From: a virus
Lineage: Duplodnaviria; Caudoviricetes
Virus record (IMG/VR): IMGVR_UViG_3300012352_000629
Location: 1-52,603 of that record
Length of the DNA: 52,603 nucleotides
Strand: one strand, 5' to 3'
In this document: in pieces, positions 92 through 18,127 of the stretch
Layout of the letters: the number at the start of each line of letters is the position of its first letter
Position numbering within the stretch: position 1 is the stretch's first letter
Translations under genes and position numbers: made by a program
Notes under the pieces: model-generated
Databases searched by the model: none
What the model was told of the DNA's origin: nothing
The model's input: only the letters and a program-made list of their open reading frames with translations

Positions 92-135
92 TTTGTATCC
101 CTTTCATTTGATTCAACCTTTTGGCTGATGTAATC

Positions 136-164
136 AGCATAGCCTATGCCAAAACAAAAAGCAA
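136..164 (-). promoter_or_regulatory. sigma70-type promoter TTGCTT-17-TATGCT, with GACAC box at 179-183
   Basis: Read directly; same layout as other units. Confidence 0.75.
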
Positions 165-267
165 ATCTTTTTTCTGGCGTGTCGCCTCTGCTAGAAAAAA
201 TAACTACGGCTCCAACTTTTCACGAAAAAGAAAAACCCCGCCGAAGCGGGGTCTTGGTTGTCGAGGG

Positions 268-516
268 CTACTCGGCAGGTTGAAGCAGGAACTCCAGCAG
301 GTCTGGAAGATTCTCACCGTGGAACATCGGGTCGTAGGCGTAGACGCTCCAGCGGTCACCGCAACATCCTGGGCAACCATCTGAGAAGTCAATGCCATAG
401 TTCTTGGCAATGGTCTCCGCCTCGGCGCGAGTCTCGGCAACGATGGTCGCCATCTGAGGCATACCCTCTAGGAAGTAGCCTCCAGCGTTGTTCTGGTCTA
501 GAACGAACTTGGTCAT
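268..516 (-). CDS. Phage hypothetical protein (QNNxGG...CPxCGDRW type)
   Basis: ORF; start moved to ATG 516 behind GAAGGGGG RBS. Confidence 0.8.
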   Translation of the reverse strand: MTKFVLDQNNAGGYFLEGMPQMATIVAETRAEAETIAKNYGIDFSDGCPGCCGDRWSVYAYDPMFHGENLPDLLEFLLQPAE

Positions 517-562
517 TTTGTCCCCCTTCGGACTTAGGCTTTCACTCTGAAAGCCTAGTAAT

Positions 563-592
563 AACTTATCACTATTCCGTGTCATTTGTCAA
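563..592 (-). promoter_or_regulatory. sigma70-type promoter TTGACA-18-TAAGTT
   Basis: Read directly upstream of 268..516. Confidence 0.65.
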
Positions 593-697
593 GCCGTGAA
601 TCTTACGCACGGAAGCTCTAAGAAAAAATAACTACGAGCTCAGCCCAGACGGCAAAAAGAAAACCCCGCCACATTGGGCGGGGTCTCTCTGGCTTGA

Positions 698-1051
698 TTA
701 CTTGAGAGCAACCTGAAGGCATTTGTGAGGGCTGTTGTCGGCCCACTCGACCTTGATTCCATTGTCCTCGAACGCCTTGAGAACAATCTCTCCAGCCGAA
801 GTCAATCCCTCTGCTGTGGCTAGGTTGCTGTGGTTGAAATACATCGTGTCGAAGTCGGCGTAGTTTCCAACAATCGAAGTGCGATTACCCTGTCCACCAT
901 AGTGCCAAACAACTGGCACATTGTCGGCCAGCCCAAGGTCAATACAACTACGGCAACATCCCATTACATTCTTGCGAGCAACGATTCCAGCCTTGCGAAT
1001 AGCCTTCATCGCCTTGTCCATACGAACCTCTAGGGTCTCTGTCTGCTCCAT
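698..1051 (-). CDS. Hypothetical protein, DUF6891-like (GIVARxNxxCCxSC)
   Basis: ORF with GAAAGGGG RBS; motif recognition. Confidence 0.75.
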   Translation of the reverse strand: MEQTETLEVRMDKAMKAIRKAGIVARKNVMGCCRSCIDLGLADNVPVVWHYGGQGNRTSIVGNYADFDTMYFNHSNLATAEGLTSAGEIVLKAFEDNGIKVEWADNSPHKCLQVALK

Positions 1052-1235
1052 TTGTTTCCCCTTTCATTGCGCAACCATTTTTGGTTACACCAAAAGCCTA
1101 CCCTATCTACGACAAAAAGCAAATCGAATCTCCGTGTCGTGTCGCTGTCAGAAAAAATAACTATGCCCTCGCACCACAGACAAAAAAAGAACGCCTGCCT
1201 TTCGGCAGACGCTCTCTCTTTAGGGGGGACTAAAT

Positions 1236-1439
1236 CTATTCTTTTGCTAACGGGACTGTGTTGAGAATCTCTAACGCAGGAAGATACTCTGTCTCATAAT
1301 CTTCCTCACGCCATTCGTTCGTCTCTGAATCCCAAACTCGTTCATCTTTGCCGAACCTTGCTATGAATGTTTCATCATCTATGAACGGCACACCTGAATC
1401 TAAATCAACGGTGACAACGAAATGGACTTCTCTACTCAT
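1236..1439 (-). CDS. Hypothetical protein (MSREVHFVV...)
   Basis: TAATG-coupled to the upstream gene. Confidence 0.7.
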   Translation of the reverse strand: MSREVHFVVTVDLDSGVPFIDDETFIARFGKDERVWDSETNEWREEDYETEYLPALEILNTVPLAKE

Positions 1440-1591
1440 TACGAACCAAACATTCCCATCTCGTGTTGTAGCCAATCATCAAACTCATTCTGGCAATCGG
1501 CACATAGGGGGTGAACCTGTCCGACTTCCGCTTCAATCTTTGTTTCACATTGGTAGCAAGTTGTCTGCTCTTTGAGAATAATCTGAGCCAT
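1439..1591 (-). CDS. 50-aa Zn-finger-like protein (CYQC...CADC), not in the ORF track
   Basis: Translated by hand; TAATG coupling on both sides. Confidence 0.7.
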   Translation of the reverse strand: MAQIILKEQTTCYQCETKIEAEVGQVHPLCADCQNEFDDWLQHEMGMFGS

Positions 1592-1764
1592 TACGCACCA
1601 ACCTTTTCACGCTCGAAGAAATCTTCCAACGCTTCCATTGTTCCGCACGCTGAACAAATCTCTGTCGTGTTGTCTCGGCGTGAAATCGCACCGGGGTATG
1701 CCCCCGGGGTCTTGTTGTTCGGAATGTAGCCAGCGCACTTAGGGCAACGCTTCAACTCGTTCAT
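1591..1764 (-). CDS. Small Zn-ribbon protein (CPKC...AISRRDN..ICSACG)
   Basis: ATG 1764 overlaps the stop of the upstream gene. Confidence 0.75.
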   Translation of the reverse strand: MNELKRCPKCAGYIPNNKTPGAYPGAISRRDNTTEICSACGTMEALEDFFEREKVGA

Positions 1765-1976
1765 ACTGCCCACGCTCCGAAATCTAGGTCGCTTGCTTCT
1801 CGGCGTGAATCGCTCCACGCAGACTCGCCATAGAAATACTTCCTCTTGCCAGTAGCCACATCTGTCATACGCCAGTAGTCCTCTGGAAACTCGGCAGTCC
1901 CGACTGCCAGTTCAACTAGTTCGCTTGCGTAAACTGTGTCCCACTCTTTTACTGCTGAAACGCTTGGCTTTGCCAT
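1761..1976 (-). CDS. Hypothetical protein
   Basis: ORF with AAAGGGG RBS, first gene of its unit. Confidence 0.75.
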   Translation of the reverse strand: MAKPSVSAVKEWDTVYASELVELAVGTAEFPEDYWRMTDVATGKRKYFYGESAWSDSRREASDLDFGAWAV

Positions 1977-2267
1977 AATCGCTTCCCCTTTCTTGATAGT
2001 CCAAACTTACCACATACCTCAGGTATAAGCAACTACGCAACTTCCGTGAAAAGTTTCCCGCACGCAGCAGAAAAAATAACTATGCTTCGCAACGCAAGGG
2101 CAAAAGAAAAACCCTCGCAAGCGGGGGACACCTGCGAGGGTTTGACTTGGGGGTTATTCAGTTGTGTGTTTGTTGTTAGGGACAACTCTATTTGGCGTGT
2201 CTGCCACGCCCCTTTGCGTGACGACCCTTGGGCTGAACTAGCCCGAAAATTGTTAGCAACTTCCTCA

Positions 2268-2498
2268 TTACTTACCCTCTCCAGATACGAATGAAACGAA
2301 CTTGTTGAACTGCGGTGAGAATGTAAACATCACCGCAACGATAATGCCAATGCTAATCCCATTGAAAAAGGTTTCGCTAATGGTCTGGTTTGGCTCTCCA
2401 CCAATCAGTAGCAACATTAGGTAAAGGAATACCCAAGCACCTGCTACGAATGGAATTGCTAGAACTCCTGCTACTGCTCTGCGAATGTAAAACTTCAT
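2268..2498 (-). CDS. Small two-TM membrane protein
   Basis: Two hydrophobic segments; RBS. Confidence 0.75.
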   Translation of the reverse strand: MKFYIRRAVAGVLAIPFVAGAWVFLYLMLLLIGGEPNQTISETFFNGISIGIIVAVMFTFSPQFNKFVSFVSGEGK

Positions 2499-2541
2499 TT
2501 TGTTCTCCCTAACTTTCTATCAGGTTTTCCTGATACGAATA

Positions 2542-2570
2542 ACTATACCTAACACCACATCTAAAGTCAA
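2542..2570 (-). promoter_or_regulatory. sigma70-type promoter TTGACT-17-TATAGT, with GACAC box at 2582-2586
   Basis: Read directly. Confidence 0.75.
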
Positions 2571-2678
2571 ACATCTTTCTCGTGTCTGCGGAAGCGTTAG
2601 AAAAAATAACTATGCTTCAAGAATTTACGGAAAAGAAAACCCCGCCAGTTTTCTGACGGGGTCTGCGAAACTATGAAA

Positions 2679-3356
2679 CTACTTCTTAGCCTTGCTCACT
2701 CTCTTTGGCTTTGGCTTGGTTACGCTGTGAACATCTATGCCCCAGTTAGCAAGAATCGAGGCTGTGCTTTGCTTCAATTCCATTACCTGCGCTAGGTAGA
2801 CTTCTTGCTTGTTTCTATCTTTTAGGTCGGCAATCAAACTATCCAGCGACTTCTGCCACTCGACTACTCGCCTCTTGGTAAGTCTGTTAGTTCCGACTAT
2901 CGTGCGATTACCTTTAGCCCACGCTCTTGAGTATTGAATGTCGTGTGGCGCACCCAACTCTCCAGACGCAATAGCGTAAGTTCTAGAATCTGGTCGGCGC
3001 TTCAATAGAGTAGCAATCTCGGCTGACATTACTTCATCTCTAATCGGCAAACGAACCTCTTCGGCGTTTAGGTAGTAAGTAGTCCTGCTTGGTGCTTCTA
3101 GTTTGCGTTTGAGTTCTGCCCTCAATGCCTTGGTGTGAATTTGAACATACTCGGCTTCCCAGTCGGAAACTTCTTTTTTGGCTTTTGCTATTGCGTCTGC
3201 GAACGCCTGCTCTTGCGCTTCAATCAATGACTCACTGTCGGCGACTATCGCCTTTATACCCTCTAGGTATCCAATCACCACATACTTATTGACTGTGCCT
3301 AGCAACTTCTCACTTGGTGTAGTTCTGTAAGCCATCATTTTATTGTTTACTAGCAT
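2679..3356 (-). CDS. Hypothetical protein, helical with basic C-terminus
   Basis: 225-aa ORF, AAAGGGAGG RBS. Confidence 0.8.
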   Translation of the reverse strand: MLVNNKMMAYRTTPSEKLLGTVNKYVVIGYLEGIKAIVADSESLIEAQEQAFADAIAKAKKEVSDWEAEYVQIHTKALRAELKRKLEAPSRTTYYLNAEEVRLPIRDEVMSAEIATLLKRRPDSRTYAIASGELGAPHDIQYSRAWAKGNRTIVGTNRLTKRRVVEWQKSLDSLIADLKDRNKQEVYLAQVMELKQSTASILANWGIDVHSVTKPKPKRVSKAKK

Positions 3357-3536
3357 TTATGCCTCCCTTTGTTATGAGCAAGTTTACCAACCACCACTGA
3401 CATTCCCGTGAACTTTTTACGAGTGTCGTATCCTGGCAGAAAAAATAACTATGCTTCGAAAAAGAACGGCAAGGGAAAACCCCCACTAGGGAAATGTCAG
3501 TAAACCTAGTGGGGGTCAGGGGGGTGTTAGGGGGAA

Positions 3537-3872
3537 CTAACTCTTTCTATTTCTAAACTCTTGCCATTCGTCATAAATCTCACTCCGCATACTTCTACGG
3601 CGACTCTTTGGGTAGCGACTCTGCTCTGCCAAGAAAAGTATGTGTTCTGCTTCTACGGCACTAATGCCACCTAGGAAAAACACTCCAATCAGAATCAGTA
3701 GTTCTACTGTCGTGTCTACTCCAGCAACCATAAACATAACCACACAAAACGCTGAACCAAGTGTCACGCCACGAAACATAGTTGCTATGTGTTCGGCGTG
3801 ATTCATTCGATTCAAATAGACGGCACGCTTGTATTGCCCTCTGCGTTTGCGTTCGTGATAACTAAGTGCCAT
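3537..3872 (-). CDS. Membrane protein (2 TM)
   Basis: ORF coupled to the upstream gene. Confidence 0.75.
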   Translation of the reverse strand: MALSYHERKRRGQYKRAVYLNRMNHAEHIATMFRGVTLGSAFCVVMFMVAGVDTTVELLILIGVFFLGGISAVEAEHILFLAEQSRYPKSRRRSMRSEIYDEWQEFRNRKS

Positions 3873-4117
3873 TAGATACCAAACACCTCTCGCAACTTTT
3901 CATCTAGGCGAGCAAGATTACGCTCTGCTCTTGCTGACGAACCTACCAAATACATACCAGACAAAATCTTTATCTCGGCATTGGCATAGCACTCTGACGA
4001 GATAGAGGCTTTGGTGCTGTCACCATAAACGCTCTCGCCACCAGCCAACTTCATAGCACGCTCAAAGGCGAACTCTGCGTATAACTCTTTTGCTACCTTG
4101 TTGAGAATCTTTGACAT
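3872..4117 (-). CDS. Hypothetical protein
   Basis: ORF, GAAAGGGG RBS. Confidence 0.75.
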   Translation of the reverse strand: MSKILNKVAKELYAEFAFERAMKLAGGESVYGDSTKASISSECYANAEIKILSGMYLVGSSARAERNLARLDEKLREVFGI

Positions 4118-4281
4118 TTTTGTATTCCCCTTTCATCAACTACATTACCAACCCCCTCTGACATTTTCAACTTTTCATCAACGGCGTGTCGAAGCTCCAG
4201 AAAAAATAACTATGCTTCCAAATAAACTGGCAAAAGAAAAAGTGCCCGCCTTTCGGCAAGCACTCTTTCGGATAAACCTTT

Positions 4282-4749
4282 TTATGAAACTGAAACGCCA
4301 CCAGACTTTTCGAGAAAAACGGCAACTCGCTTAATCTCTGTAAGGTCTAGATAATCAGCAAGGTCGAACGTATTCCGAGTAACGCCTAACCCTTGGCATT
4401 TCGCGCAGAAACTTATGTACTGAGGCTTACCGAGACTGTCCAGTTCAGTAGTGCCTACACCATCGCAGTGTTCGCAAGTAATAATCGGCGACTTGATTGC
4501 CTCGTCGCGTGAGGCTTTCTTATACTCGGCTACTTGCTTGAGGGTGACTTTGTTTAGCAGTTCAGCAATAGTCTTAGTGTCCTCTGCCGACCACAAGGCT
4601 CTGTATGCGCTGAAAAATTGCTCAAGTTCTTCCGACTTTAGTGTAGTTTTGGCAAACTCTTTGAGAGCACTGAACCCAGCGATGCCTAGCACTATCTCCT
4701 TTTCACCATACTTAAGTCCCTTTGTCTTTGCCCTTAGACTTACGCCCAT
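4282..4749 (-). CDS. Hypothetical protein with DnaJ-type CxxCxGxG zinc finger; paralog of 13923..14441
   Basis: CEHCDGVG and CAKCQGLG; shared C-terminal FLxxSGG. Confidence 0.8.
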   Translation of the reverse strand: MGVSLRAKTKGLKYGEKEIVLGIAGFSALKEFAKTTLKSEELEQFFSAYRALWSAEDTKTIAELLNKVTLKQVAEYKKASRDEAIKSPIITCEHCDGVGTTELDSLGKPQYISFCAKCQGLGVTRNTFDLADYLDLTEIKRVAVFLEKSGGVSVS

Positions 4750-4918
4750 TTTGTTCCCCTTGTCCCTTTCCTATCAACTTTTGTTGATACCTAAATCCTA
4801 TCAGTCCTTGACAAATAAGCAAACACGCACGTAAACCCTCTAGAAAAAATAACTATCCACCCCCGAGCGCGGGCAAAAGAAAACCCCCCACTTTCGTGAG
4901 GGGCTAACTTTTTACGAA

Positions 4919-5272
4919 CTATCCTGTGAAGGCTTTTCGTGTCTCTTCGACAAGTTCCAACATCTCTGCCACATCTGCGTCGCTCAAGCCAATGGTGTAA
5001 CCCTCTGGGTCTGTGCCACCTGTGAGAACTACTGTCCCAAAGATTGGGCGATTGCCACCAATCTCTGAGTAGAGTGCTGAACCAATAATGTTTGCTTCCA
5101 ACTCTGGGCGGAAGATGAACTCCTCGTTCACCCACATAATCACATCTGACGCAACGACTACTGCTTCGATGTAACCATCAACGGCCTTCTGAAGTTTGCT
5201 CAATTCATCCTGAGCAATGTCAATGACACTTGCTTCCAATGCTGGTGTGATTACTACTGCTGACTTTGACAT
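4919..5272 (-). CDS. DUF3846-like protein
   Basis: LQxAVxGYIE...VNEE...N...I.G.VVLTG pattern. Confidence 0.75.
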   Translation of the reverse strand: MSKSAVVITPALEASVIDIAQDELSKLQKAVDGYIEAVVVASDVIMWVNEEFIFRPELEANIIGSALYSEIGGNRPIFGTVVLTGGTDPEGYTIGLSDADVAEMLELVEETRKAFTG

Positions 5273-5442
5273 CTCTGTCCCCTTTTCTGTCAGAATCTCT
5301 GACTAAGAAAATCCTAACACCTTCCACCGCATTACGCAAATCCTTCATAAAAAGTTTCCACCGGCAGCAGAAAAAATAACTACAACTTTTACGGCAAGCA
5401 AAAAAATACCCCGCCATTTCTGACGGGGCATTTCTTATTTGG

Positions 5443-5709
5443 TTATTGGTGACAACCGCACTCGCAGGTTACTGTTCCGCGTTTGGCTTCACGCAACTCT
5501 TTACGCTCGTTAGCAAGTTCTTTCAACTTAGTGTTGAACTTCTTGACTTCCCTAGCCCACTTCGACAACTCATCTAGGTTTATGCCTAGGTTGTCTTCAA
5601 CCCCAAGGTCATTCACAAAGTTCATAGCCAACTCTCGGCGTTGCTCTACAACTTCGTTTATTTCTTCTTGAACAATGGCAAGTCTTGCCTTTATCTCGTT
5701 GGTGTCCAT
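5443..5709 (-). CDS. Coiled-coil hypothetical protein
   Basis: ORF, AAAGGAG RBS. Confidence 0.75.
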   Translation of the reverse strand: MDTNEIKARLAIVQEEINEVVEQRRELAMNFVNDLGVEDNLGINLDELSKWAREVKKFNTKLKELANERKELREAKRGTVTCECGCHQ

Positions 5710-5832
5710 ACCAACTCCTTTCGTAGTATTACTACTTTACCGCACCTACTTAGAAAAGTCAAGTTGCTCTGTCGTGTTCGTATTGCTCGCAGAAAAAATA
5801 ACTACACTTCAAAACTTCACGGCAAAAGAAAA

Positions 5833-5934
5833 GCGGCAGTAGATTGGGGGGAATCTACTGCCGCGACTAGGTAAAGGGGGGGTAACCTAGTATCTTCAAC
5901 TGTTAGTGAGCAACTTTGCTGCTATCCAGTTGAA
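5833..5934 (-). ncRNA. 6C-like structured RNA: two adjacent hairpins with C7 and C6 loops plus an upstream hairpin
   Basis: On -: ACTAGGT-TACCCCCCCTTT-ACCTAGT then GCGGCAGTAGATT-CCCCCC-AATCTACTGCCGC followed by a U-tract. Confidence 0.55.
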
Positions 5935-5941
5935 ATCTATA

Positions 5942-6226
5942 CTACTCTACAAATTCTTCTTCCGCATCCACGCACCACGCGTCAAGGTGGTGATTAATAA
6001 TAATCTCACGCGCTGGCGCTGTCTTCTTACCGCGATAAGTTACTCCCTCGGGTAAGTCAATCTCTTTGTCCAACTCATCTGCCCAATAGCAATCAATTGC
6101 TTCGACACAAGGTGTAATCATTGATGACGGCACCGGCGGGAAGTGGTTGCCCCTTAGGTGCCAATCTAGTTGTTGCTCTAAGGTCAAATTAGTTTCCGCA
6201 ATTCCCATTGCTGTTACGTGTCCCAT
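5942..6226 (-). CDS. Phage hypothetical protein (HLxxNHxPP...HHL.AW)
   Basis: ORF coupled to the upstream gene. Confidence 0.8.
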   Translation of the reverse strand: MGHVTAMGIAETNLTLEQQLDWHLRGNHFPPVPSSMITPCVEAIDCYWADELDKEIDLPEGVTYRGKKTAPAREIIINHHLDAWCVDAEEEFVE

Positions 6227-6618
6227 TAGTCTTCCTCTCCAGTTCCATAATACTCATTAACTAAGTCTTCCTGAATGTTATCGGCGATGATGAATTCTTC
6301 GAATGTCCATTCGTGTGAACCGAATGTAACTCGCTGATTAGGGAAGTCAATCACCGCGTGAAAATAACTTTCCTCGAATAGGTTATCGCTATCATTGCCT
6401 ACGGCAATCCCGAATCCAGTTACGCTGTCCCATTCGTTGCCAATAATCTGGCTGATAAAAATACGCACGCCATAACTCGTATCGCTCCAGCGTGGCATTG
6501 CGCTAATAAGCGCTCGCTGTGTGTCGGCAAACTTATCTTCTCCGCCATTGTGGCTGTAAAGGTGAACGGCGTTCCCGCTGTTGTCCTCTTTGATAATCCA
6601 CGCTGTTCTCGAACCCAT
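6226..6618 (-). CDS. Phage hypothetical protein (MGSR...LYSHxGG)
   Basis: Start moved to ATG 6618 behind GAAAGGGG. Confidence 0.8.
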   Translation of the reverse strand: MGSRTAWIIKEDNSGNAVHLYSHNGGEDKFADTQRALISAMPRWSDTSYGVRIFISQIIGNEWDSVTGFGIAVGNDSDNLFEESYFHAVIDFPNQRVTFGSHEWTFEEFIIADNIQEDLVNEYYGTGEED

Positions 6619-6786
6619 TTCGAAACCCCTTTCTAGGTATGCCCTAATTCTATCAATCTGTCGTGAAAAGTCAACTTCATCTGGCAGCGGCGATTCGCTG
6701 AAAGTGTGAGAAAAAATAACTACACTCGGCGAGCGCAAAAGGGTAAAAGAAAACCCCGCCTAAGCGGGGCTAACTTTTTATGGTGT

Positions 6787-7122
6787 TTAGTAAGTTGGGG
6801 TGTATTGAATGTTGAGCATACGAACCAATCGCTTTTTGTTTGGCGATGGTGAGTAATACGCTAGAAACTTCTCTACCGCAGTTGCTGGTAGTGACCTTAG
6901 GATTCTGCCTAGTAGCGTGCTAGTGGTCTGGCTAATCTGCCAATCTGCTAGAGAAACAATCTCGTGAGTGTGAATGTTGTATTCGAGAATCGTAGTTCTC
7001 CAGTGGACAATCGTGTAGATTCCAGTGTCGCTCATCTCAGCTACAATCGTGCCATTGTAGTTTACGAATGGCTGAAACTTCTTGATGTAGCCATTGATTT
7101 CATAGTTAGCAATTCTTGCCAT
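6787..7122 (-). CDS. Hypothetical protein
   Basis: ORF, GAAAGGGG RBS. Confidence 0.75.
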   Translation of the reverse strand: MARIANYEINGYIKKFQPFVNYNGTIVAEMSDTGIYTIVHWRTTILEYNIHTHEIVSLADWQISQTTSTLLGRILRSLPATAVEKFLAYYSPSPNKKRLVRMLNIQYTPTY

Positions 7123-7292
7123 TTTAGTTCCCCTTTCGAACTTGCTATAAGTTTACCAATACCCTACGACATTTTTCGTGTTCGTGAAAAGTTTCGTGAA
7201 AAGTCTGTCACCTCCAGAAAAAATAACTATGACTTTGATTTACAGCAAAAAAGAAACCCCCGCATTTCTGCGGGGGCTTCTCGTGATTCTGC

Positions 7293-7610
7293 TTAGTCCA
7301 ACTTAGCCAGTTCGCTGGTGAGGCAAGCAAGCAAGGCTTCTGCTTCTGCCTTGGTAAATCTGTGGCTCAAGATGTCCACGTGAGTCGTGATTGGCTCGTC
7401 ACCATAACTGATTGAAACGTAGGTGTGACCAGTAATCGAAACCCAGACATTGTTGTCGTCTGCGTCTGCGCTGGTGTAGATGTCAATCGAGTTTGACACA
7501 TAGGTGTCGCTCTCGTCGTTGCTTCTAACAGAAACCTTGGCAGAGCTTTGCTCTCCAAGTTCAGTAGCGAGGTCTAGAACGACCTGCTCCTTTACAGCTG
7601 TGGTAGTCAT
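7293..7610 (-). CDS. Hypothetical protein
   Basis: ORF, GAGGGG RBS. Confidence 0.75.
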   Translation of the reverse strand: MTTTAVKEQVVLDLATELGEQSSAKVSVRSNDESDTYVSNSIDIYTSADADDNNVWVSITGHTYVSISYGDEPITTHVDILSHRFTKAEAEALLACLTSELAKLD

Positions 7611-7805
7611 AATGACTTTCCCCTCGTTTTGTATAAGCCTTGTTGCTTATGGAATAAGCGTATACCCTATGGCTGACATTTGTCAAATCTTTCTCGTGTG
7701 GCGTGTCGTGCCAGAAAAAATAACTACACTCGAAAAAATGACGGCATAAAAAATCCCCCAATCTGGCTCGCTGTCCAAGATTATTGGGGGAAAACTTTTT
7801 ATGGA

Positions 7806-8015
7806 TTACAAATAGCAATCTCCGCATTTAGGGATTCTGCCACCCAGGCTCTCAATCCAATCTTGAGTTCGCTGGTCTACTGTGTAATCATCTCCGCACT
7901 TGTAGCAAGTGTGCGTGTAGCGTGGCTCGTCTGGTGATAGTCGTCTGCCACTTCTCATAGCGAGGTTCGTAAGTTCCTCGTCTGTGAGTTCTGGATTCTC
8001 GGCGTGTAGTCGCAT
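7806..8015 (-). CDS. Small Zn-ribbon protein (CYKC...CGDC)
   Basis: ORF coupled to the upstream gene. Confidence 0.7.
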   Translation of the reverse strand: MRLHAENPELTDEELTNLAMRSGRRLSPDEPRYTHTCYKCGDDYTVDQRTQDWIESLGGRIPKCGDCYL

Positions 8016-8266
8016 TAGTCCCTCTCATCTCTCCATTGGTCGTAAGCGGCATCTTCATCATAGCCACCCTCGTCTGCTATCTCTTTGGTGAGGATAGCCT
8101 TACAATCTGGACACTCCGCACTTGCGTTGTGTCCCCAATCATCTGTCTGCCCATCTAGCACGAACTCGTCTTCGCAGTTGTCGCAGTAGAAGATACCTGA
8201 ATAATCCTCTTGGTAGATACCTGACCCCATCATAGAGCCACCATCTCCATAACTCCCTAATGACAT
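8015..8266 (-). CDS. Acidic Zn-ribbon protein (CDNC...CPDC)
   Basis: Start moved to ATG 8266 behind GAAAGGA. Confidence 0.75.
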   Translation of the reverse strand: MSLGSYGDGGSMMGSGIYQEDYSGIFYCDNCEDEFVLDGQTDDWGHNASAECPDCKAILTKEIADEGGYDEDAAYDQWRDERD

Positions 8267-8437
8267 TTCTTGTCCTTTCTGTCTTTCGACAATCTGATTA
8301 TTACATAGTGGTCGGACATTTAGCAACTTTTTATCAGCGTGTCAAAGTTCTAGAAATCTATCAGAAAAAATAACTATGGGGAAAATCAAGACAAAGAAAA
8401 ACCCCTAGCAGTTCGCTAGGGGTCAAATCTTTTTTGG

Positions 8438-8752
8438 CTATCGCAGGTCTGCGTATTGCTTCTGCCAATCGAAGTTTCTGACTGACTCTGCTTCCAAAAT
8501 GCTTTCAGCATTGTCGGGAACTTGAGCCATACGAAGTCCAGCCTGAATCACAAGTTCATACGAACCTACACCCAGTCCGTCTGCGATTGACTGGATAATC
8601 CCACTCGAAGGACACTTGTGTCCTCGCTCTACCTCTGATAGGTAACCCAGAGCAAGGTATCCGTTAGCACTTAGGTTGCGTAGCGTCAACCCTTTAGCAA
8701 GCCGTTGCTCTCGCACAACCTCGCCGAAAGCGGTCTGAAAATCTGTTCCCAC
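8438..8752 (-). CDS. XRE-family HTH regulator, ClgR/PopR-like
   Basis: R..RL..GLTLR.LS....LALGYLSEVERG.K.PSS..I..IA..LGV resembles the actinobacterial ClgR HTH. Confidence 0.8.
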   Translation of the reverse strand: MGTDFQTAFGEVVREQRLAKGLTLRNLSANGYLALGYLSEVERGHKCPSSGIIQSIADGLGVGSYELVIQAGLRMAQVPDNAESILEAESVRNFDWQKQYADLR

Positions 8753-8754
8753 TT

Positions 8755-9108
8755 CTACTCCTCGCCGTCCGTGTGGTCGTGGTCGCAGTTAGCGTGAGGG
8801 TCTGACCAGTTCTTGCCTTCTTCTTGCCAGCCGTTCTGCTCGATAATCCGCTCAACAACCTCGCCACATTCCATAGCGGTTAGTTTCAGATTGGTAATCA
8901 ACTCGTCCACGCCGTTCATAAGGTCGGTGTTGTCCGTGCCTTCGTATTCAAGCCGTGCCTTGAACTGCTCGGCAAGTTGCTCTGTTGCTTTCAACGCCCG
9001 ATACATAGTTGGGTCTGCGTATCCGTCTTTCACATACGACTCAATAAGCACGCCGACTACTGTGAGGGTAAGTCCCGTGATGTCCTCTAGTTCCAATGGC
9101 TGATTCAT
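8755..9108 (-). CDS. Hypothetical protein
   Basis: ORF, AAAGGGG RBS. Confidence 0.75.
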   Translation of the reverse strand: MNQPLELEDITGLTLTVVGVLIESYVKDGYADPTMYRALKATEQLAEQFKARLEYEGTDNTDLMNGVDELITNLKLTAMECGEVVERIIEQNGWQEEGKNWSDPHANCDHDHTDGEE

Positions 9109-9258
9109 TCAGCACCCCTTTCCTTTGGTATCAGATTACCACTAACTTCCGACAATTTCCACTCATTTCCTAATCGTGTCAAACCTGCCAGAAAAAATAA
9201 CTATTCGTGTTGATGAGAAAAAAGGGGCAGGGCTTTCGCCCCACCCCTCTCTCTCGTG

Positions 9259-9603
9259 CTACTTCGCCTGTCGTGTCACAGAACGAATAGGGTATTGCTT
9301 CTTGGTGACGAGGCACGCCTCGTAGACCTCTGGGAACTTGGTCTTTAGAAGTTCCATGTCCACAGACTCTTTCGACTGCTCTGCGATAACCGCAACCTCA
9401 ACGCCATTGTGGATTAGGGTCTGGGCTTTCTCGCCCACTACGGCAAAGATGTCTTTGCGTAGTTCGTCTACACGCTTGGTCGCCGAGTTCGCAATCGCAC
9501 GAACATCTTTCAGTTCGTCCAACATAGCCACGAACTTCTTTGTGACCTTGACGACCTCTGCTACTGGTGTTGCCTGTGTTGCTTGGGAAATGACCTTAGT
9601 CAT
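9259..9603 (-). CDS. Hypothetical protein (coiled coil, VD..LK..FPEVY motif)
   Basis: ORF, GAGGGGG RBS. Confidence 0.75.
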   Translation of the reverse strand: MTKVISQATQATPVAEVVKVTKKFVAMLDELKDVRAIANSATKRVDELRKDIFAVVGEKAQTLIHNGVEVAVIAEQSKESVDMELLKTKFPEVYEACLVTKKQYPIRSVTRQAK

Positions 9604-9962
9604 GACTTCCCCCCTCTTGGGCTACTTCTGTTTCACCCTGATTGGATACTCCAATCCTACCTCTTTTCAACCAAAAAGCAAATCAAAGTTTCCTGCGTGT
9701 CGCACCAGAAAAAATAACTATTGGGCTGGCAATCCGGGCTGGGGAGTGCCAACTTTTTACGAGCTAAAGAAAGTCAGAGCGGCAACTTTTATGATCACTA
9801 GAACTCCCAGAGCGATACCTCGGGAAAGGCGAAACCCCTACCAAGACTTGGGGGAAGCAACTTGATAGGGGTTTCTATTGACTATCCGTTGGGAACTAGT
9901 GTCAGGTGAAAGGGGGGAACTCCCGAGTTTCGCTCAACCTCTAGATAGGCAATCCGTTGTGC

Positions 9963-11828
9963 TTAGGTGAGTGAACCCACCTTTGCTAAGGCTTCGCTTG
10001 CCGACTTGCCGACTAGCAGGGCAATCTCGGCGGTGTCTAGGTTGTCCAAGTGAACTCCCCACGCCGATTCTCGGATAATGCTTCTAGCACCAATCGAGTA
10101 GCAATCTTTCGGTGTAATCCAGAGAACCGCCACGCCGTTCGCTTTACACTCTCGTAGAACCTTGACTGCCCATTCCGTCTGCTTCGGTGTGTAGTTGCCG
10201 TCTGAAACGATAACCAACATTCTCACGCCGTCACCGAAAGTCAATCCGAGTTCGCCGTCCAACGCCTCAAACGCCTCGCCAAACATTTCCGTTCCGTCTG
10301 GTGCGGTGTAAATCGTGACCTCGTTCAAACGCTGTCCACGCTTGAGAGTTGGAAAGATACCCGAGCCGTAGTAAATCATAGCCGTTTCAGCCTGAATCCT
10401 GCGACCTGCTTCGGAGAGAACCCACGCTGTCGTTCCCATAGCGTTCATAGCCGAACCCATAGAACCCGAGATGTCCACCATTACGCCAAGACGAAGTGTT
10501 GGGTCGTCTGTGTGCTTGCGTGTCTTTGACTTCCAAGTTGGGAGTTCGCCACGCATACCCATAGATTCGACTGCTCGATTCTGAATCAGATTCCTAGCAA
10601 TCAGTTTTCCCTGTGGCATTTGGGTCTTGCGAATGTGAACAGAGCGTTCACGATACTTCGCCTTTTCCAAAGACTTCGCAATCGAAACGGCACTTGCTCG
10701 CTCTGCCCCAGTTGGCTGTCTGCGAGTGTCCACTCGTGAACTTGAGCCACTTCCAGTTTCAGGGCTGTGGGTCTTGTCGAAAACCTGCTTCGCCTTTTGC
10801 TTGCGTTCGTTGCTCTTGTTCGCTTCGCTCTGGCGTGCCTTTGACTGCTCTTGAAACTGCTCGTGCTTCTCTTGGTCTGCGAGAGAATCGCTGGCGTTCA
10901 TCTCTGCTTCTGTGGCAGACTGCGAAAGTTTAGCAATCATCTTTTTCATAGTGTCAGACATTTCGCCCTCGCCAGATTCGCCCTCGCCCTCGCCCTCGCC
11001 AGATTCGCCCTCTGATTCCTCGAAAGGGTTGCCAACTGAACCTGCCTGTGGCTCGCCCTCTGGGTCTGCCTCACGCAAAAGTTCAACCCACTTCTTTGAG
11101 AGTTGAATCGCACGCTCGACCTGTGGCACGCCTAGCGACTGAAACTCAATCCAGACTTTGCGTAGTTCGTCAAACAAATCCTGACCAATAACTGAAACGA
11201 CTTCTCGATAGATGTCAGAGATGTCTGCCACCTCTAGCACGCCAGAATCTACTCGTGAGATTGCCAGACCTGCTAGTTGGGCTGTGTTCCAGATGTCACC
11301 TGCTAGGTTGCCAAGTGACTGCTCATTGACACCCTCAAGTGCCATTTCCAAAGCCGAAGTGCGTAGGAACAAACGATTCTCTGGTCGCTCTTTGATTCCC
11401 TTTGCTTCGATACGAGATTCCTCAAGCAACATAAATGCCTGTGCCTCAAGTGGCTCAAGTTGGGTGCTTAGGTATTTGGTATCCCACTTGGTATGACGAG
11501 CGTGTAGTGCTTCGTGGAATAGGATTCCAGTTGCCATTGGGAACTCATACTGAACTGCCTTGTCCATAATGTTTCCGACAAACTCTGCTGGCGTGAACTC
11601 TCCAAATGCTTTCGGCAAGTTCACCTCAATCTCGGCAATCTCTGAATAAAAAGCGGCGACTGCTCGACCCTCGGCAGAATCCTCACCTGCGTAAACTACT
11701 AGGTCGCTTCTCCAAGACCAGTCATTGACCAGTCGTCCAATCTGTGAACAAACTCGCAACCACTCTGGGTTGGTTGTCGCTGTTCGAGTTGTAAGTCTTG
11801 ACTTACCCTTTGCTTCGTAGTGTGCCAT
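9963..11828 (-). CDS. VWA (MIDAS) domain protein with N-terminal HExxH motif, CobT-like partner of the MoxR ATPase
   Basis: HEALH, EESRIE, acidic GE linker, VDISGSM MIDAS, IVSDG. Confidence 0.88.
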   Translation of the reverse strand: MAHYEAKGKSRLTTRTATTNPEWLRVCSQIGRLVNDWSWRSDLVVYAGEDSAEGRAVAAFYSEIAEIEVNLPKAFGEFTPAEFVGNIMDKAVQYEFPMATGILFHEALHARHTKWDTKYLSTQLEPLEAQAFMLLEESRIEAKGIKERPENRLFLRTSALEMALEGVNEQSLGNLAGDIWNTAQLAGLAISRVDSGVLEVADISDIYREVVSVIGQDLFDELRKVWIEFQSLGVPQVERAIQLSKKWVELLREADPEGEPQAGSVGNPFEESEGESGEGEGEGESGEGEMSDTMKKMIAKLSQSATEAEMNASDSLADQEKHEQFQEQSKARQSEANKSNERKQKAKQVFDKTHSPETGSGSSSRVDTRRQPTGAERASAVSIAKSLEKAKYRERSVHIRKTQMPQGKLIARNLIQNRAVESMGMRGELPTWKSKTRKHTDDPTLRLGVMVDISGSMGSAMNAMGTTAWVLSEAGRRIQAETAMIYYGSGIFPTLKRGQRLNEVTIYTAPDGTEMFGEAFEALDGELGLTFGDGVRMLVIVSDGNYTPKQTEWAVKVLRECKANGVAVLWITPKDCYSIGARSIIRESAWGVHLDNLDTAEIALLVGKSASEALAKVGSLT

Positions 11829-11946
11829 TTGCTTCCCTTTCATTTGGCTTATGTGTCTAGTTTACCCTTTTCGGGGAAAGTGTCAAGTCCATTTTGAAAA
11901 AACTTTTTCGACACTTCCCCCTCGGGTTATTTAGGGGACACGAACC

Positions 11947-13014
11947 CTAAATCTTTGCTGGCAGAATCGCCTCTCCGAATACTCGGGTGAATACATCACT
12001 AGCGATTGCTCTGTCAATCTCTGGTGCGGAAGCGAGCAAGTTTTGAACCGCCCACTTAGTTCCGAACAACTTGGTCAAATCTCTAAACGCTAGAAGTTCA
12101 CGCATTTGAGGCGACCACGAAGTTTCACCATTTTCCATTTTCTTTGCCAAGTTCTGTGAGGCGACAACCGCACTCTGCGGAACGCCCAACTTCTTTGCCA
12201 AGTTCCAGTCAGTTGTCAGTTCTGCCTGAATCGCAAAGCGAGATAGAAGTGCCTCGCTCAAACGAACACCTGCGACATTTGGGTTGGTCGCACTCACGAC
12301 ATAAAAGCCCTCTTGTGCTTTCACAACTCCACGCTCGGGATTCGCTGTGACGACCAGTTCTTTTCTTCCGTCCATTAGACCATAGACCACCGAAAGAACC
12401 TTTGGGTCAATCAGACCAATCTCGTCAATCAAAAGCACCTTGCCCTCGGAAGCCGCTTTTGTCAAAACTCCGTCCACCCACTCGAAACCGCCACTTGGGG
12501 TCTGGACATAGCCACCCACCAAGTCAGCAACCTCTGTGTCGCCAGAGCCAAGAATCGTGTAGAGTTCGTCTGGAAAAGCGGCTTCGACCATAGCAGTCTT
12601 ACCAGTTCCAGGGACTCCATAGAGCATTACATAGGCACTTGCTTCTCGTGCTTTGCGTAGCACTTCGACATCAGTATTTTCGCCCCACTTGCGACCAAAG
12701 TAAAGGTCGCCATTAGGTCGTGCGTATGATTCCGCACCCTCTAATGATTCTGCTGTTTCCATAACTTCCTCGAACTTGACTGGCTCGGCGATTGCCTCTG
12801 CTGAATCTAGTTTAGTCGGAGTTGAAACCTTAGTTCCAGACTTGGCTCGAAGTGTTGCTCGACCTGCTGGAGTTAGATGTTCGTCAAGAATCGAAGTCGT
12901 GATTCCGAAACTCGCACCTGATACCGCACCTGCTACCTGCTCGACCAACTTGTCGAAGTCAAGACCTGCGATAGTTGGGTCTGGGTGTTCTGCTACTACT
13001 TTGTTCTGATACAT
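11947..13014 (-). CDS. MoxR/CbbQ/CobS-type AAA+ ATPase
   Basis: Walker A GVPGTGKT, Walker B LLIDE, ATNP, ALLSRF. Confidence 0.92.
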   Translation of the reverse strand: MYQNKVVAEHPDPTIAGLDFDKLVEQVAGAVSGASFGITTSILDEHLTPAGRATLRAKSGTKVSTPTKLDSAEAIAEPVKFEEVMETAESLEGAESYARPNGDLYFGRKWGENTDVEVLRKAREASAYVMLYGVPGTGKTAMVEAAFPDELYTILGSGDTEVADLVGGYVQTPSGGFEWVDGVLTKAASEGKVLLIDEIGLIDPKVLSVVYGLMDGRKELVVTANPERGVVKAQEGFYVVSATNPNVAGVRLSEALLSRFAIQAELTTDWNLAKKLGVPQSAVVASQNLAKKMENGETSWSPQMRELLAFRDLTKLFGTKWAVQNLLASAPEIDRAIASDVFTRVFGEAILPAKI

Positions 13015-13058
13015 TTGGCTTCCGCCCTTTCGTGTCGTGTCTTTGTATCTGACTTGTA

Positions 13059-13673
13059 TTATGCCAGTTTTGTTGGGAACTTGTCAAGTGATTCACGAAC
13101 CTTGTTGATTCGGCGAATAACTGCTTGTGGAGTTTTGCGATTGAGGTGTAGGTCTGCGTAATCTTGGTCAGTCAGTTCGACTGCGATTGGCTTGCTATCA
13201 CGAACTACCCAACCCTGCTTTGCGATAGTCGAGCGATTGCCCTCTGAATCTGGCTCGCTGTAAGTTGTCGAGATAGTGTAGTTGCGTAGGAGATTTGCGA
13301 TTGCTCGCTTTCGAGAATCAAACTTCTCTCGCTCTGTGAGTTCGTCCCACTCGGCGTTGCTGTATGAGTTGTAGTTCACATACGAATCATTAGCAGAGTG
13401 AGCCTCTGCTGGCTTCAAACGGAATCTGTCTGTGTAGGTGAAATCCCATTGTGCCTTTGGCGAGAATGATGAAACTAGGCGTTCCATAACTACCGCACTC
13501 CACACTTTGCCTGTGTCGTCTTGATACTCTGGGAAAATAAGAATCTGCTTAGTTCCCTCGAACTGCCAACCCAACAAAGAGCGAAGTTCGTCCTTGTCCA
13601 TACTGCTGTCGCCAACCAACTCTAGGTAGAGTGCCTTGCCGACAATCTTTGGTGCTACTGCTGTGGTAGTCAT
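13059..13673 (-). CDS. Hypothetical protein upstream of the AAA/VWA pair
   Basis: 204-aa ORF, GAAAGGGG RBS. Confidence 0.8.
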   Translation of the reverse strand: MTTTAVAPKIVGKALYLELVGDSSMDKDELRSLLGWQFEGTKQILIFPEYQDDTGKVWSAVVMERLVSSFSPKAQWDFTYTDRFRLKPAEAHSANDSYVNYNSYSNAEWDELTEREKFDSRKRAIANLLRNYTISTTYSEPDSEGNRSTIAKQGWVVRDSKPIAVELTDQDYADLHLNRKTPQAVIRRINKVRESLDKFPTKLA

Positions 13674-13922
13674 TTGACTATCCCCTTTCGTGTCGTGTCG
13701 CTGGATTTTTCCAACAAGTAGATTGAAGCATACTTTTTACGGAATGTCAAATGTATCTCATAAAAAGTTTCATAACAAACTGATAACGGAACTTTTTTAG
13801 CAACCTGTAAGAAAAAATAACTACAAAGCAAAAATCTGCTAGAAAAAATAACTACAAATCTGGGCAAAGAAAAAGAGCCAGTTTAGACACTTGGCTCAGG
13901 TGTTTGACTTTACAGTCGGGGT

Positions 13923-14441
13923 CTAGCAGATTTCAAAACCACCAGAGTCTATTAGGAACTCTGCGAAGTCTTTGACATCATCTGGCTCTAGGTAATAGGA
14001 GGTGGCGAAGTTCTCACGCTTGCCAACTCCAGAGCAGGCATTACACGAACCCTTGGTGCGACCAACAATAATCGCAATGTCTGGCTCAAGTTCTTTTTCA
14101 GGCCACCCAGACTCTATGCCCAGTTGGTCTGTGCGAATACCTGTGCCTTCACAGATTTGGCAATCCTCGAATGGCAACTCAGACAGAGCCTTGTTTCGCT
14201 CGGCAACATACTCGACAACTTTTCCAGAGGTGTAGTCCTCCATCAAAAGTTTTGCCAACTTGGTGGCATTTCGTGAACCCAGTCCATCGCCATCGTTGGT
14301 GTGTGCGTGTTCAACCAACTCAGCAATCTCTGGGTGATTGTCCTCTACATAACCCCATAGTGGATGCCAGCCCCATACATTCCTACGGAAGTATTGACCA
14401 GCCTCTGACTTTGGGTTTTTCCCATAAACATCCATACCCAT
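13923..14441 (-). CDS. Phage protein (MGMDV...YFRRNVWGWHPLW) with DnaJ-type zinc finger
   Basis: CQICEGTG and CNACSGVG; RBS. Confidence 0.85.
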   Translation of the reverse strand: MGMDVYGKNPKSEAGQYFRRNVWGWHPLWGYVEDNHPEIAELVEHAHTNDGDGLGSRNATKLAKLLMEDYTSGKVVEYVAERNKALSELPFEDCQICEGTGIRTDQLGIESGWPEKELEPDIAIIVGRTKGSCNACSGVGKRENFATSYYLEPDDVKDFAEFLIDSGGFEIC

Positions 14442-14544
14442 TTAGGTATCCCCTTTCTTTGGTAGTTCAAGTAAACCATAAAAGGGTATAAGTGTCAAGT
14501 CAAATCAGACGCACTTATTTAGTGTCAGAAAAAATAACTATGAA

Positions 14545-14871
14545 TCAGAAAAAGTCGTATTCGTCATCATCAGCTTGGAAGTGACTTTTAACGACTGGAG
14601 GAAAGAAGGCGTCCACGTAGTCAAGCACTGGACTTGCGCACTCTTCACATACGACCCAGTCCTGGTCGTTCTCGTCAACTACTAGTACGAAGGGTTCGAA
14701 CTCGCATGTTGGGTTCGAGTAGCAAAGCTTCTCCTTGCACTCAGAGCAGTCCGTTACAGCTAGCTGCTCTGGCAGGATCAGACCAGAGGTGAGGGCGAGC
14801 TCTAGGTCTCGCTCGGTTTCAAAATAGTGGACTTCTAATGAACGCATGAGTATAGCATACAGCGAGCGCAT
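14545..14871 (-). CDS. Zn-binding hypothetical protein
   Basis: CSEC and CEEC; start may be 14847. Confidence 0.7.
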   Translation of the reverse strand: MRSLYAILMRSLEVHYFETERDLELALTSGLILPEQLAVTDCSECKEKLCYSNPTCEFEPFVLVVDENDQDWVVCEECASPVLDYVDAFFPPVVKSHFQADDDEYDFF

Positions 14872-14913
14872 GCCGTTGATTTGGAACGCGCTCGCCGTAG
14901 TGCTATAGCAGGC

Positions 14914-15387
14914 CTACCAACTTGAGTTGTAGTAGAAATCGTATCCGTTCATACCATCAGGCAGGCCAAGTATTTGGGCAAGCCGTTTTGCTGTCCAGTC
15001 GGTGGACTCAAAGTAGTACTCGTCATAGTCCGTGCCACCAAAGAAGAACCCACTCGCCGTTGGTAAATACTTAGCGGCTACCTCGCCCGTGCCACCTTCA
15101 ACAACCTTGCGGCAGGCCTCTTCAAGTTCTATCAACTTTTCACGAGAGACGTAGTAAGTCTTGCAGTCATCCGTGCCGTCTTGAACATTCTTCACAAACC
15201 ACTCGTGAATGTGATTGACCTTCCGCCAGTAAGCAACGTTCACGCTTACCGTAGCGAAGCGCTCATCGTGCATGTCTTGCAGCCCGACGGCTTCAGTTAT
15301 GTTCTTGAAGAGTTCTTGCTCTTCTGGCTTGGTGTGTGAATATCCGCTCACAAATTTGCGAGCCTCTAGGTACATGTCCAATCCCAT
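14914..15387 (-). CDS. Phage protein (MGLDMYL...YWRKxNxIHxWF...GFFFG...YxSSW)
   Basis: Recognisable phage hypothetical family motif. Confidence 0.85.
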   Translation of the reverse strand: MGLDMYLEARKFVSGYSHTKPEEQELFKNITEAVGLQDMHDERFATVSVNVAYWRKVNHIHEWFVKNVQDGTDDCKTYYVSREKLIELEEACRKVVEGGTGEVAAKYLPTASGFFFGGTDYDEYYFESTDWTAKRLAQILGLPDGMNGYDFYYNSSW

Positions 15388-15389
15388 GG

Positions 15390-15545
15390 CTAGCCCTCAA
15401 TCTCTACTAGTTCAGTTAGCAAGTCATCTGCCTGCTCTTCAGTTATGTATTCGAACTCCTGTGCGTTATCTACAGCACAAGTCAGTCCATCATTGAAGCC
15501 CATCTGGTAGGCCTTCTTTAGTTCTGGGTTTCCATAGAAGTCCAT
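15390..15545 (-). CDS. 51-aa hypothetical protein, not in the ORF track
   Basis: Hand translation MDFYGNPELKKAYQMGFNDG...; fills the gap. Confidence 0.65.
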   Translation of the reverse strand: MDFYGNPELKKAYQMGFNDGLTCAVDNAQEFEYITEEQADDLLTELVEIEG

Positions 15546-15546
15546 G

Positions 15547-15726
15547 TTAGTTGTCGTCCCTACTTACTTCATAGGTGACGCTACCATCTAGGAACTCGGC
15601 GTCATCTTGGTATTCGACGGGCAGGGTTGCCGCCTCGTAGTTATCTGTGATGTGTTTCTGGATAGTGTCATTGAACTCATCCATCTCTACTTCATAGGTT
15701 GAAACAATGGTGATTGTGACTTTCAT
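15547..15726 (-). CDS. 59-aa acidic hypothetical protein, not in the ORF track
   Basis: Hand translation MKVTITIVSTYEVE...; GAAAGGGG RBS. Confidence 0.7.
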   Translation of the reverse strand: MKVTITIVSTYEVEMDEFNDTIQKHITDNYEAATLPVEYQDDAEFLDGSVTYEVSRDDN

Positions 15727-15749
15727 CTGAAGCCCCTTTCTTTGTGTGT

Positions 15750-17823: not shown

Positions 17824-17824
17824 C

Positions 17825-18121: not shown

Positions 18122-18127
18122 GGTCCG

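Follow-up and report, generated by a model that had tools for sequence, protein, structure and literature searches.

A conserved three-hairpin RNA with C-rich loops at the 3' end of a phage early operon and its likeness to actinobacterial 6C RNA

An early gene cassette of a freshwater tailed phage (Duplodnaviria; Caudoviricetes) ends in a structured RNA element of three hairpins (HP1, HP2, and HP3), two of which expose runs of C in their loops. The element lies on the minus strand at positions 5934-5824 of the IMG/VR virus record IMGVR_UViG_3300012352_000629, of which positions 1 to 52,603 were analyzed (hereafter, the window). It is a conserved structured RNA and not a chance arrangement, and it resembles the actinobacterial 6C small RNA (sRNA). 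One of its loops is complementary to a ribosome-binding site (RBS) sequence that the phage places before many of its early genes. Judging from the sequence, the chances seem roughly balanced that the element works as a 6C-like anti-RBS RNA feeding back on early translation.

An RNA of three hairpins at the end of an early cassette

A preliminary description of this DNA, made from the letters alone, had reported two adjacent perfect hairpins with C7 and C6 loops, preceded by a third hairpin. Direct reading of the minus strand and RNAfold bear out both the observation (a C7 run in the HP2 loop and a C6 run in the HP3 loop) and its coordinates. The minimum-free-energy and centroid structures of the element both consist of exactly HP1, HP2, and HP3 (Table 1), and the folding energy of -45.4 kcal/mol (z = -5.23) was not reached by any of 200 shuffled sequences. 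The last hairpin doubles as a terminator, as had been proposed: HP3 appears in the terminator scan with 13 pairs, 7 of them G-C, and is followed by TTTTCTTTT, and the next promoter module lies downstream.

The location in a cassette 3' untranslated region (3' UTR) likewise holds, HP1 starting approximately 10 nt past the TAG stop codon (5944-5942) of an open reading frame (ORF) for a 94-amino-acid (94-aa) protein. The element forms the 3' end of a cassette made up of a promoter (6674-6647), a first gene (RBS at 6632-6626 and ATG at 6618), and the 94-aa gene, and it has no recognizable promoter of its own. The gene-bearing strand here is the minus strand; there is no plus-strand gene nearby, and a function on the plus strand was rejected for this reason.

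Conservation and covariation among relatives

The 94-aa protein was used to collect related loci (the best 80 of 496 relatives in a metagenome scan and the best 80 of 192 in a viral scan). Among 118 distinct sequences downstream of its homologs, 26 contain at least two runs of five or more C (C5+) within 170 nt of the stop codon, and 92 contain fewer than two. Such paired runs occur at 23 of the 39 loci with a protein identity of at least 60% versus 3 of the 79 loci below 60%. The relatives fold into the same three-hairpin layout despite quite different stem sequences. A consensus of 17 sequences from MAFFT and RNAalifold misaligned the variable stems, gave a poor result, and was replaced by a 10-sequence MAFFT alignment with a hand-written structure. 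The covariance model built from the latter (R1), followed by model-based realignment, matched 24 distinct phage loci at E<=1e-7.

In the 24-locus alignment, 96.0% of the cells pair and both sides have changed in 20 of 24 pairs, including 7 of 7 pairs in HP2 and 10 of 12 in HP3. None of 500 shuffles reached any of the five measures used, and controls with slid positions paired at 21-57%. Being fitted to R1, this alignment is biased toward the structure; the MAFFT-only alignment of 10 sequences agrees with it (96.2% of cells paired and double changes at 11 of 24 pairs). In HP1, pairing of the inner stem is kept at one locus (L094) by a compensatory change from A-U to G-C, and the outer stem has an entirely different sequence at another (L095).

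The preliminary description had named a lack of conserved C loops in homologous cassettes as a finding that would speak against it; instead, the C runs are kept as the stems change. At least four consecutive C are found in 22 of the 24 HP2 loops and 23 of the 24 HP3 loops, and the run is followed by at least two U in 21 and 13 of them, respectively. One HP2 loop (L038) has C3 only. The U-rich tail starts with UUU in 23 of the 24 elements, the remaining one (L061) starting with CUUUU. The element lies directly 3' of a 94-aa homolog in 21 of the 24 strong matches and away from the gene in the other three (L018, L061, and L127). In complete relatives, R1 finds a single strong copy with one or two weaker ones close by, except for one complete genome (G004), which has none. 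A variant at three loci (L039, L040, and L041; positions ~1792-1904) keeps the three hairpins without C runs and has a U-rich HP2 loop and a very short HP3 loop; nature may thereby offer a control for loss of the C loops.

Likeness to actinobacterial 6C RNA

6C is among the few sRNAs conserved across Actinomycetota, and in mycobacteria it controls replication, secretion, and growth. Part of a published study describes the 6C RNA as 93 nt long ahead of a polyU stretch and as having three loops, two of them (L2 and L3) conserved and rich in C (PMC6486639). According to the same partial text, these two loops need no chaperone to bind G-rich RBSs, for example, AGGGGGG of panD (PMC6486639). The phage element likewise has two adjacent hairpins with loops of approximately six C (C7 and C6 in the window), and it ends in a U tract (5832-5824), with a length from HP1 to the tail of ~110 nt against ~90-100 nt for 6C. 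The conserved chromosomal neighborhood of 6C is not present, the flanking host genes (~500 aa and ~290 aa) being absent from the virus record.

The Rfam 6C model (RF01066; gathering score, 47 bits), which the preliminary description had proposed as a check, matched neither the window nor any of 17 related loci at E<=10, and this result counts against a relationship with 6C. At the gathering score, the Rfam models returned only seven tRNAs in the whole window; at E<=10, they returned only chance-level matches to ctRNA_p42d and mir-1000 in the region 5600-6100, and a scan of the 17 related loci gave nothing at the element. RF01066 also had no match in five metagenome-assembled genomes (MAGs) carrying the neighboring gene.

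A different result was obtained with R1. As a comparison set, we used 41 genomes of the family of an Aquiluna-labeled MAG (Microbacteriaceae-family), a MAG in which a homolog of the 94-aa gene is present. RF01066 matched 22 of them, once each, with 36-49 bits; as run here, it matched none of the nine genomes smaller than 2 Mb. The 6C RNAs found in this way comprise a pair of hairpins, each with a C6 loop, and end in a U-rich tail. At seven of these loci (L181-L185, L187, and L188), 6C hairpin 1 has exactly the same 14-nt apex as HP3 of the window, and the base of HP3 (GCGGC...GCCGC) resembles that of the second 6C hairpin (GGCGGC...GCCGCC). In the reciprocal search, R1 picked out precisely the 6C RNA at 6 of 10 RF01066 loci, with 17-24 bits, aligning HP2 with 6C hairpin 1 and HP3 with 6C hairpin 2 and the U tail; its E-values are rough, since the calibration was shortened.

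Across the 41 genomes, R1 gave a single match in each of five (G020, 36.1 bits; G046, 31.3 bits; G005, 29.5 bits; G022, 26.5 bits; and G027, 23.8 bits) and nothing else. The G022 match coincides with an RF01066 match. The loci in G020, G005, G046, and G022 lie between the ~500-aa and ~290-aa genes that also border the RF01066 loci, and the G027 locus has one of the two 6C flanks within the fetched piece, together with a plainly 6C-like sequence. R1 thus found syntenic 6C orthologs in G005 and G020, where RF01066 (as run here) had no match, suggesting that the Rfam model underdetects 6C in lower-GC lineages. The 6C orthologs of small genomes located by R1 are G020:C1:1105590-1105716 (L191), G005:C15:13679-13793 (L192), and G046:C3:125229-125345 (L227). 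A practical by-product is therefore a phage-derived model that detects 6C in small-genome freshwater genomes of the Microbacteriaceae family.

The likeness to 6C put forward in the preliminary description is upheld by the reciprocal R1 matches with their synteny, the C loops, and the U tail, and it fails on the RF01066 score and on the idea of a stand-alone sRNA gene: the element follows directly on the stop codon of a phage gene. On sequence grounds, the element has the 6C architecture and a detectable likeness to 6C, which may reflect either capture or convergence.

Complementarity of the loops to early ribosome-binding sites

The loop sequence CCCCUUU does complement the AAAGGGG RBSs exactly, as had been noted, and the HP2 loop also complements the RBS motif GAAAGGGG of the early genes. 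The minus strand of the window has 13 AAAGGGG sites, of which 10 sit 5-9 nt before an ATG, all in the first 16 kb. Counted by ORF, the motif lies near the start of 9 of 60 ORFs in positions 1-16000 versus 0 of 117 in the remaining window. CCCCUUU has three sites on the RNA strand of the window: the HP2 loop, a 3' UTR at 9915, and a terminator stem at 9227. For G020, which belongs to the same family as the Aquiluna MAG and is not a demonstrated host, 240 kb were sampled; AAAGGGG is found there near the start of 1 of 260 ORFs, and the RBSs are mostly of the GAGG or AGGAG type.

The RBS motif and the element cluster together in three genomes, i.e., the window and two diverged complete genomes (G001 and G002). 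G001, with the R1 element, has 12 AAAGGGG-N4-10-ATG sites, all within 107.6-121.8 kb, and three of its four same-strand CCCCTTT sites fall in that region. G002, also with the element, has nine such RBS sites, all within 59.8-72.1 kb, and five of seven same-strand CCCCTTT sites within 64.3-73.2 kb. In G004, where the element is absent, the three AAAGGGG-N4-10-ATG sites and the CCCCTTT sites are scattered. The U's that follow the C run in 21 of the 24 phage HP2 loops match the AAA of the phage RBS; none of the host 6C loops displayed has U's after the C run, the host form being a C run followed by AA. When the 820-nt cassette RNA is folded as a whole, the predicted probability (P) of pairing between the RBS at 6632-6626 and the HP2 loop is 0.62-0.84. 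A comparison of duplex energies between early and late genes was dropped because the late ORF starts are unreliable: they were taken as the longest ORF, and an anti-Shine-Dalgarno (anti-SD) control reached only -3.6 kcal/mol there.

Probable host

No cultured phage record was matched by megablast (window 4500-7500) or by tblastn (94-aa protein). WhiB proteins are typical of Actinomycetota and of the phages that infect them. A WhiB protein (PF02467) is encoded in all four related complete or near-complete genomes, and the host is therefore probably actinobacterial; the window, a 52.6-kb fragment with an estimated completeness of ~40% and a G+C content of ~45%, yielded no WhiB. Five of eight MAG contigs carrying the neighboring gene are labeled Actinomycetota (Aquiluna, Clavibacter, two unnamed, and Nocardioidaceae), subject to the caveat that phage contigs are easily misassigned when MAGs are binned. 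The WhiB genes of the relatives and the MAG labels together make an actinobacterial host likely though not proven. Public sequencing runs that cover the window to a share of at least 0.2 are labeled as freshwater, shale-gas, or plain metagenomes, and no RNA run is among those listed.

Early cassettes and other C runs in the window

The first ~15 kb of the window is a row of ~17-19 small minus-strand cassettes with a highly regular layout. Every early cassette has a terminator hairpin and U tract, then a RTAGTTATTTTT motif, a sigma-70-like promoter, and a leader with the RBS GAAAGGGGA. RTAGTTATTTTT is present in 19 copies versus 0.33 expected (window 196-14541, minus strand), ~10-20 nt past the terminator U tract and ~30-50 nt ahead of the promoter-like -35 element. 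In relatives, the same place is taken by other T-rich versions, such as GTATCCACTTTTTT and TATTTATTTTTTG, the latter with 14 copies in G001. RTAGTTATTTTT could be a regulator site or an UP-like site that defines the early cassettes. Many early promoters have a -35-like TTGAC or TTGCT followed by AATGTCAG in the spacer (e.g., window 4190-4150, 7700-7660, and 8320-8290), a signature also seen in distant relatives (L006, L007, L034, and L100); promoters of this type may be a class specific to this phage group.

The RNA strand of the window is G-rich overall (the GC skew on the plus strand is negative), and C runs therefore run counter to its composition. All five runs of six or more C on the transcribed strand lie in 3' UTRs of early cassettes (1223, 3519, 5846, 5876, and 9912), and runs of five or more C on the RNA strand concentrate in five such 3' UTRs (~1223, 2123-2153, 3511-3534, 5846-5882, and 9850-9917). 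G6 runs are not enriched across the window (8 matches versus 11.2 expected). R1 gave weak matches (20-24 bits) at three of the other C-run 3' UTRs (Table 1). A poly-C tract just past a stop codon varies in length among relatives, with C6 in the window (1223-1228, minus strand), C11 in G001 (119900-119910), and C12 in L099 (~1771-1782). The HP2 and HP3 runs are one C apart among near-identical phages (C7/C6 in the window, C6/C6 in L093, and C6/C5 in L094). This variation in poly-C length looks like homopolymer slippage.

Hundreds of relatives of the 94-aa protein, with invariant His and Cys positions, were observed in aquatic metagenomes and viral contigs. The protein has no Pfam or PHROG match, its AlphaFold2 (AF2) model has no PDB match at E<1, and a protein atlas search gave subthreshold leads only (score, 0.87). 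Elsewhere in the window, a cluster of seven tRNA genes lies at 37398-38647 (minus strand; Rfam scan), and a Nol-like carbamoyltransferase gene (phrog_1601; E-value, 8e-102) adjoins a gene for a protein with an S8/subtilisin-like protease domain at 40810-43839 (minus strand); the closest phage-record matches of this protein show ~49% identity over 44% of its length.

Table 1. Coordinates of the element, its cassette, and related features in the window
Feature	Position	Strand	Basis or remarks
HP1, bipartite hairpin; outer stem of 8 bp around an inner stem of 4-5 bp with a 4-nt loop	5895..5934	-	Sequence, RNAfold
HP2, perfect 7-bp stem; 12-nt loop (5884-5873) holding C7 (5882-5876), then UUU	5866..5891	-	Sequence, RNAfold
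HP3, perfect 13-bp stem with C6 loop (5851-5846); terminator hairpin	5833..5864	-	Sequence, RNAfold, terminator scan
U tract UUUUCUUUU of the intrinsic terminator	5824..5832	-	Sequence, terminator scan
94-aa gene, stop codon just before the element	5942..6226	-	No Pfam or PHROG family; AF2 predicted local distance difference test (pLDDT), 88.9
First gene of the cassette, ATG at 6618, RBS AAAGGGG at 6632-6626	6226..6632	-	phrog_31860
Promoter-like site of the element's cassette, TTGACT-16-TAGAAT	6647..6674	-	Consensus match only
Early-cassette region with 10 RBS sites AAAGGGG-N5-9-ATG	1058..15739	-	First bases at 15739, 14456, 13688, 9121, 7136, 6632, 5285, 4133, 1991, and 1064
Second C-run 3' UTR module, CCCCCCUUUC at 9917-9908 plus a terminator-like hairpin with a C5 loop	9824..9947	-	R1, 20.1 bits
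Third C-run 3' UTR module, C5 and C6 runs before the terminator and another C5 in the terminator stem	3469..3566	-	R1, 20.1 bits
Fourth C-run 3' UTR module, C5 run plus a terminator with a C5 loop	2100..2206	-	R1, 23.6 bits
Fifth C-run 3' UTR, C6 between UAG-AUUUAGU and UAAAG, immediately before the terminator	1175..1238	-	Homologous place in G001 is C11

Proposed function and alternatives

We propose that the phage carries in this element a relative or mimic of actinobacterial 6C, which forms the 3' end of an early operon mRNA. HP3 would additionally end transcription, and the two C-rich loops (consensus CCCCC, then U's) would act as anti-RBS sequences, pairing with the G-run Shine-Dalgarno (SD) variant GAAAGGGG that the phage appears to use for its early cassettes only. 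We regard this reading, with HP2 supplying the anti-RBS loop that fits AAAGGGG, as about an even call. Pairing would be possible in cis, between the 5' UTR and the 3' UTR as in icaR, and in trans, with other early transcripts as in 6C. As early RNA accumulates and its loops pair with early RBSs, early translation would be damped or shut off. That this pairing takes place in the cell and represses translation is what we infer from the sequence.

Several results weigh against this proposal, in addition to the missing RF01066 match described above. The mean duplex energy of the real HP2 loop with early RBSs is -11.2 kcal/mol versus -9.5 +/- 1.1 kcal/mol for shuffled loops; this energy owes most to composition, i.e., C content. 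The predicted pairing in cis is uneven among relatives: in a comparison that left out L013 and L094, P exceeded 0.7 in four loci (L019, L095, L028, and L048) and stayed below 0.35 in four others (L016, L065, L104, and L017), and in one of five control cassettes that lack C loops, the RBS likewise pairs with the 3' end. C-run 3' UTRs are found on ~5 of the ~17 early cassettes and G-run RBSs on nearly all, and four loci (L022-L025) have G-run RBSs and no element at this place. The co-occurrence of element and RBS comes from four nonindependent genomes, and one relative (L039) keeps the hairpins with both C runs lost.

A more elaborate scenario is that a freshwater actinophage clade captured the 6C sRNA of its host and appended it to an early operon. 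The RNA would then have coevolved with a private SD variant (GAAAGGGG, read by the ribosome via G-U wobble) until its loops became the perfect complement CCCCCUUU, yielding an RNA-only timer of early translation shutoff; the host-like HP3 loop might also act on the host 6C regulon. We offer this scenario tentatively and regard it as rather doubtful.

The preliminary description had also raised host shutoff. Here, the early mRNA 3' end, either intact or after processing, would amount to an overdose of 6C that represses G-rich leaders of the host during takeover, with the match to phage RBSs being secondary; the targets of mycobacterial 6C include dnaB and panD. Within the family genomes, R1 matches nothing but 6C loci, and the HP3 apex shares its 14-mer with hairpin 1 of host 6C, as would be expected of such a mimic. 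In the available part of the mycobacterial study, overexpression of 6C inhibits growth via its C loops (PMC6486639), and according to part of another report, plasmids carry extra copies of 6C (PMC9569102), so the RNA does move. Most phage loops, however, have drifted from a C run with AA to a C run with U's, which fits an RBS found only in the phage, and the AAAGGGG leader is rare in the sampled family genome (1 of 260 ORFs). We therefore consider a primarily host-directed role unlikely, although action on the host and action on the phage's own transcripts do not exclude each other.

The element might instead be purely structural, a tandem-hairpin terminator and barrier to 3' exonucleases in which the C loops serve termination or stability. 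HP3 is indeed a canonical intrinsic terminator, a terminator closes every cassette, and a view quoted in the accessible portion of PMC6486639 holds C-rich stem-loops to be alternative termination structures. Against this, 9 of the 11 strong minus-strand terminators in positions 1-20000 have no C-run loops, HP1 and HP2 are unneeded for termination and yet covary and keep the loop motif, and the C runs go against the composition of the G-rich RNA strand. Deletion of the 6C loops, moreover, did not lower stability according to the portion of that source at hand (PMC6486639), and a purely structural 3' end appears improbable. Similarly improbable, in our assessment, is a protein-binding platform, in which the C-rich loops would be bound by the 94-aa protein (as autoregulation) or by a host C-binding protein of the KH type. 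The position directly 3' of the 94-aa gene in most strong matches would suit autoregulation, as would a protein that folds confidently, has invariant His and Cys, and lacks known relatives; yet this protein shows no RNA-binding family or fold, its gene lacks the element in most relatives (the 92 of 118 loci with fewer than two C5+ runs downstream), and the element stands away from the gene at three loci. In addition, host 6C needs no chaperone, as stated in part of PMC6486639. Two other candidates were rejected: an antitermination RNA of the put or nut type, since the element closes the unit and serves as its terminator, and a Rho utilization site, since the C runs are short and inside hairpin loops.

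Comparison with known systems

RNAs whose C-rich loops target SD regions are already known (e.g., 6C, the icaR 3' UTR, and the Rsa motif). In the literature searched, with subscription journals outside its coverage, we found no report of a phage-borne copy or mimic of 6C or of C-loop 3' UTR modules in phages. With 6C (RF01066; B11/ncRv13660c in mycobacteria), as partly described in PMC6486639, the phage element shares a length of ~100 nt, three loops with the last two C-rich, and a U tail. The base of HP3, the apex 14-mer, and the complementarity of the loops to G-rich RBSs are also common to both. It differs from 6C in being virus-borne and located in an early operon past a stop codon, with no promoter of its own seen, and in its short HP2 stem (6-10 bp) and the U's behind the C run in most phage loops. 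If the proposal is true, a virus would here plainly have put a core regulatory RNA of its host to new use.

In icaR of Staphylococcus aureus, the 5' UTR and 3' UTR of the same mRNA pair over a long range. The icaR 3' UTR carries the anti-SD motif UCCCC, according to the available part of PMC3868564. The common features are a C-rich 3' UTR motif complementary to the SD of the same mRNA (here, CCCCUUU versus AAAGGGG at 6632-6626) and long-range 5'-3' pairing, which is predicted here. By contrast, icaR belongs to another phylum and has no sequence relation, and the phage has two C loops in a conserved three-hairpin terminator module and many other transcripts with the same target site. The C-rich-loop sRNAs of Firmicutes (RsaE/RoxS) target G-rich SD regions with unpaired C runs in hairpin loops. 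The phage element has such loops in common with these RNAs and with the staphylococcal Rsa sRNAs, whose UCCC motif is given in part of PMC2790875. They differ in being chromosomal stand-alone sRNAs of another phylum, and no such Rfam family matched the element at E<=10.

A private RBS and an anti-RBS loop would form a matched pair that is directly testable by compensatory mutations. Phage T4 ends its early phase with RegA and RegB, proteins (a repressor and an endoribonuclease, respectively) that act on RBSs of its own early mRNAs. The phage described here would likewise make a factor acting on its own early-mRNA RBSs, but the proposed effector is an RNA; if this is true, the element would represent an RNA-based counterpart of the protein systems by which phages end the early phase.

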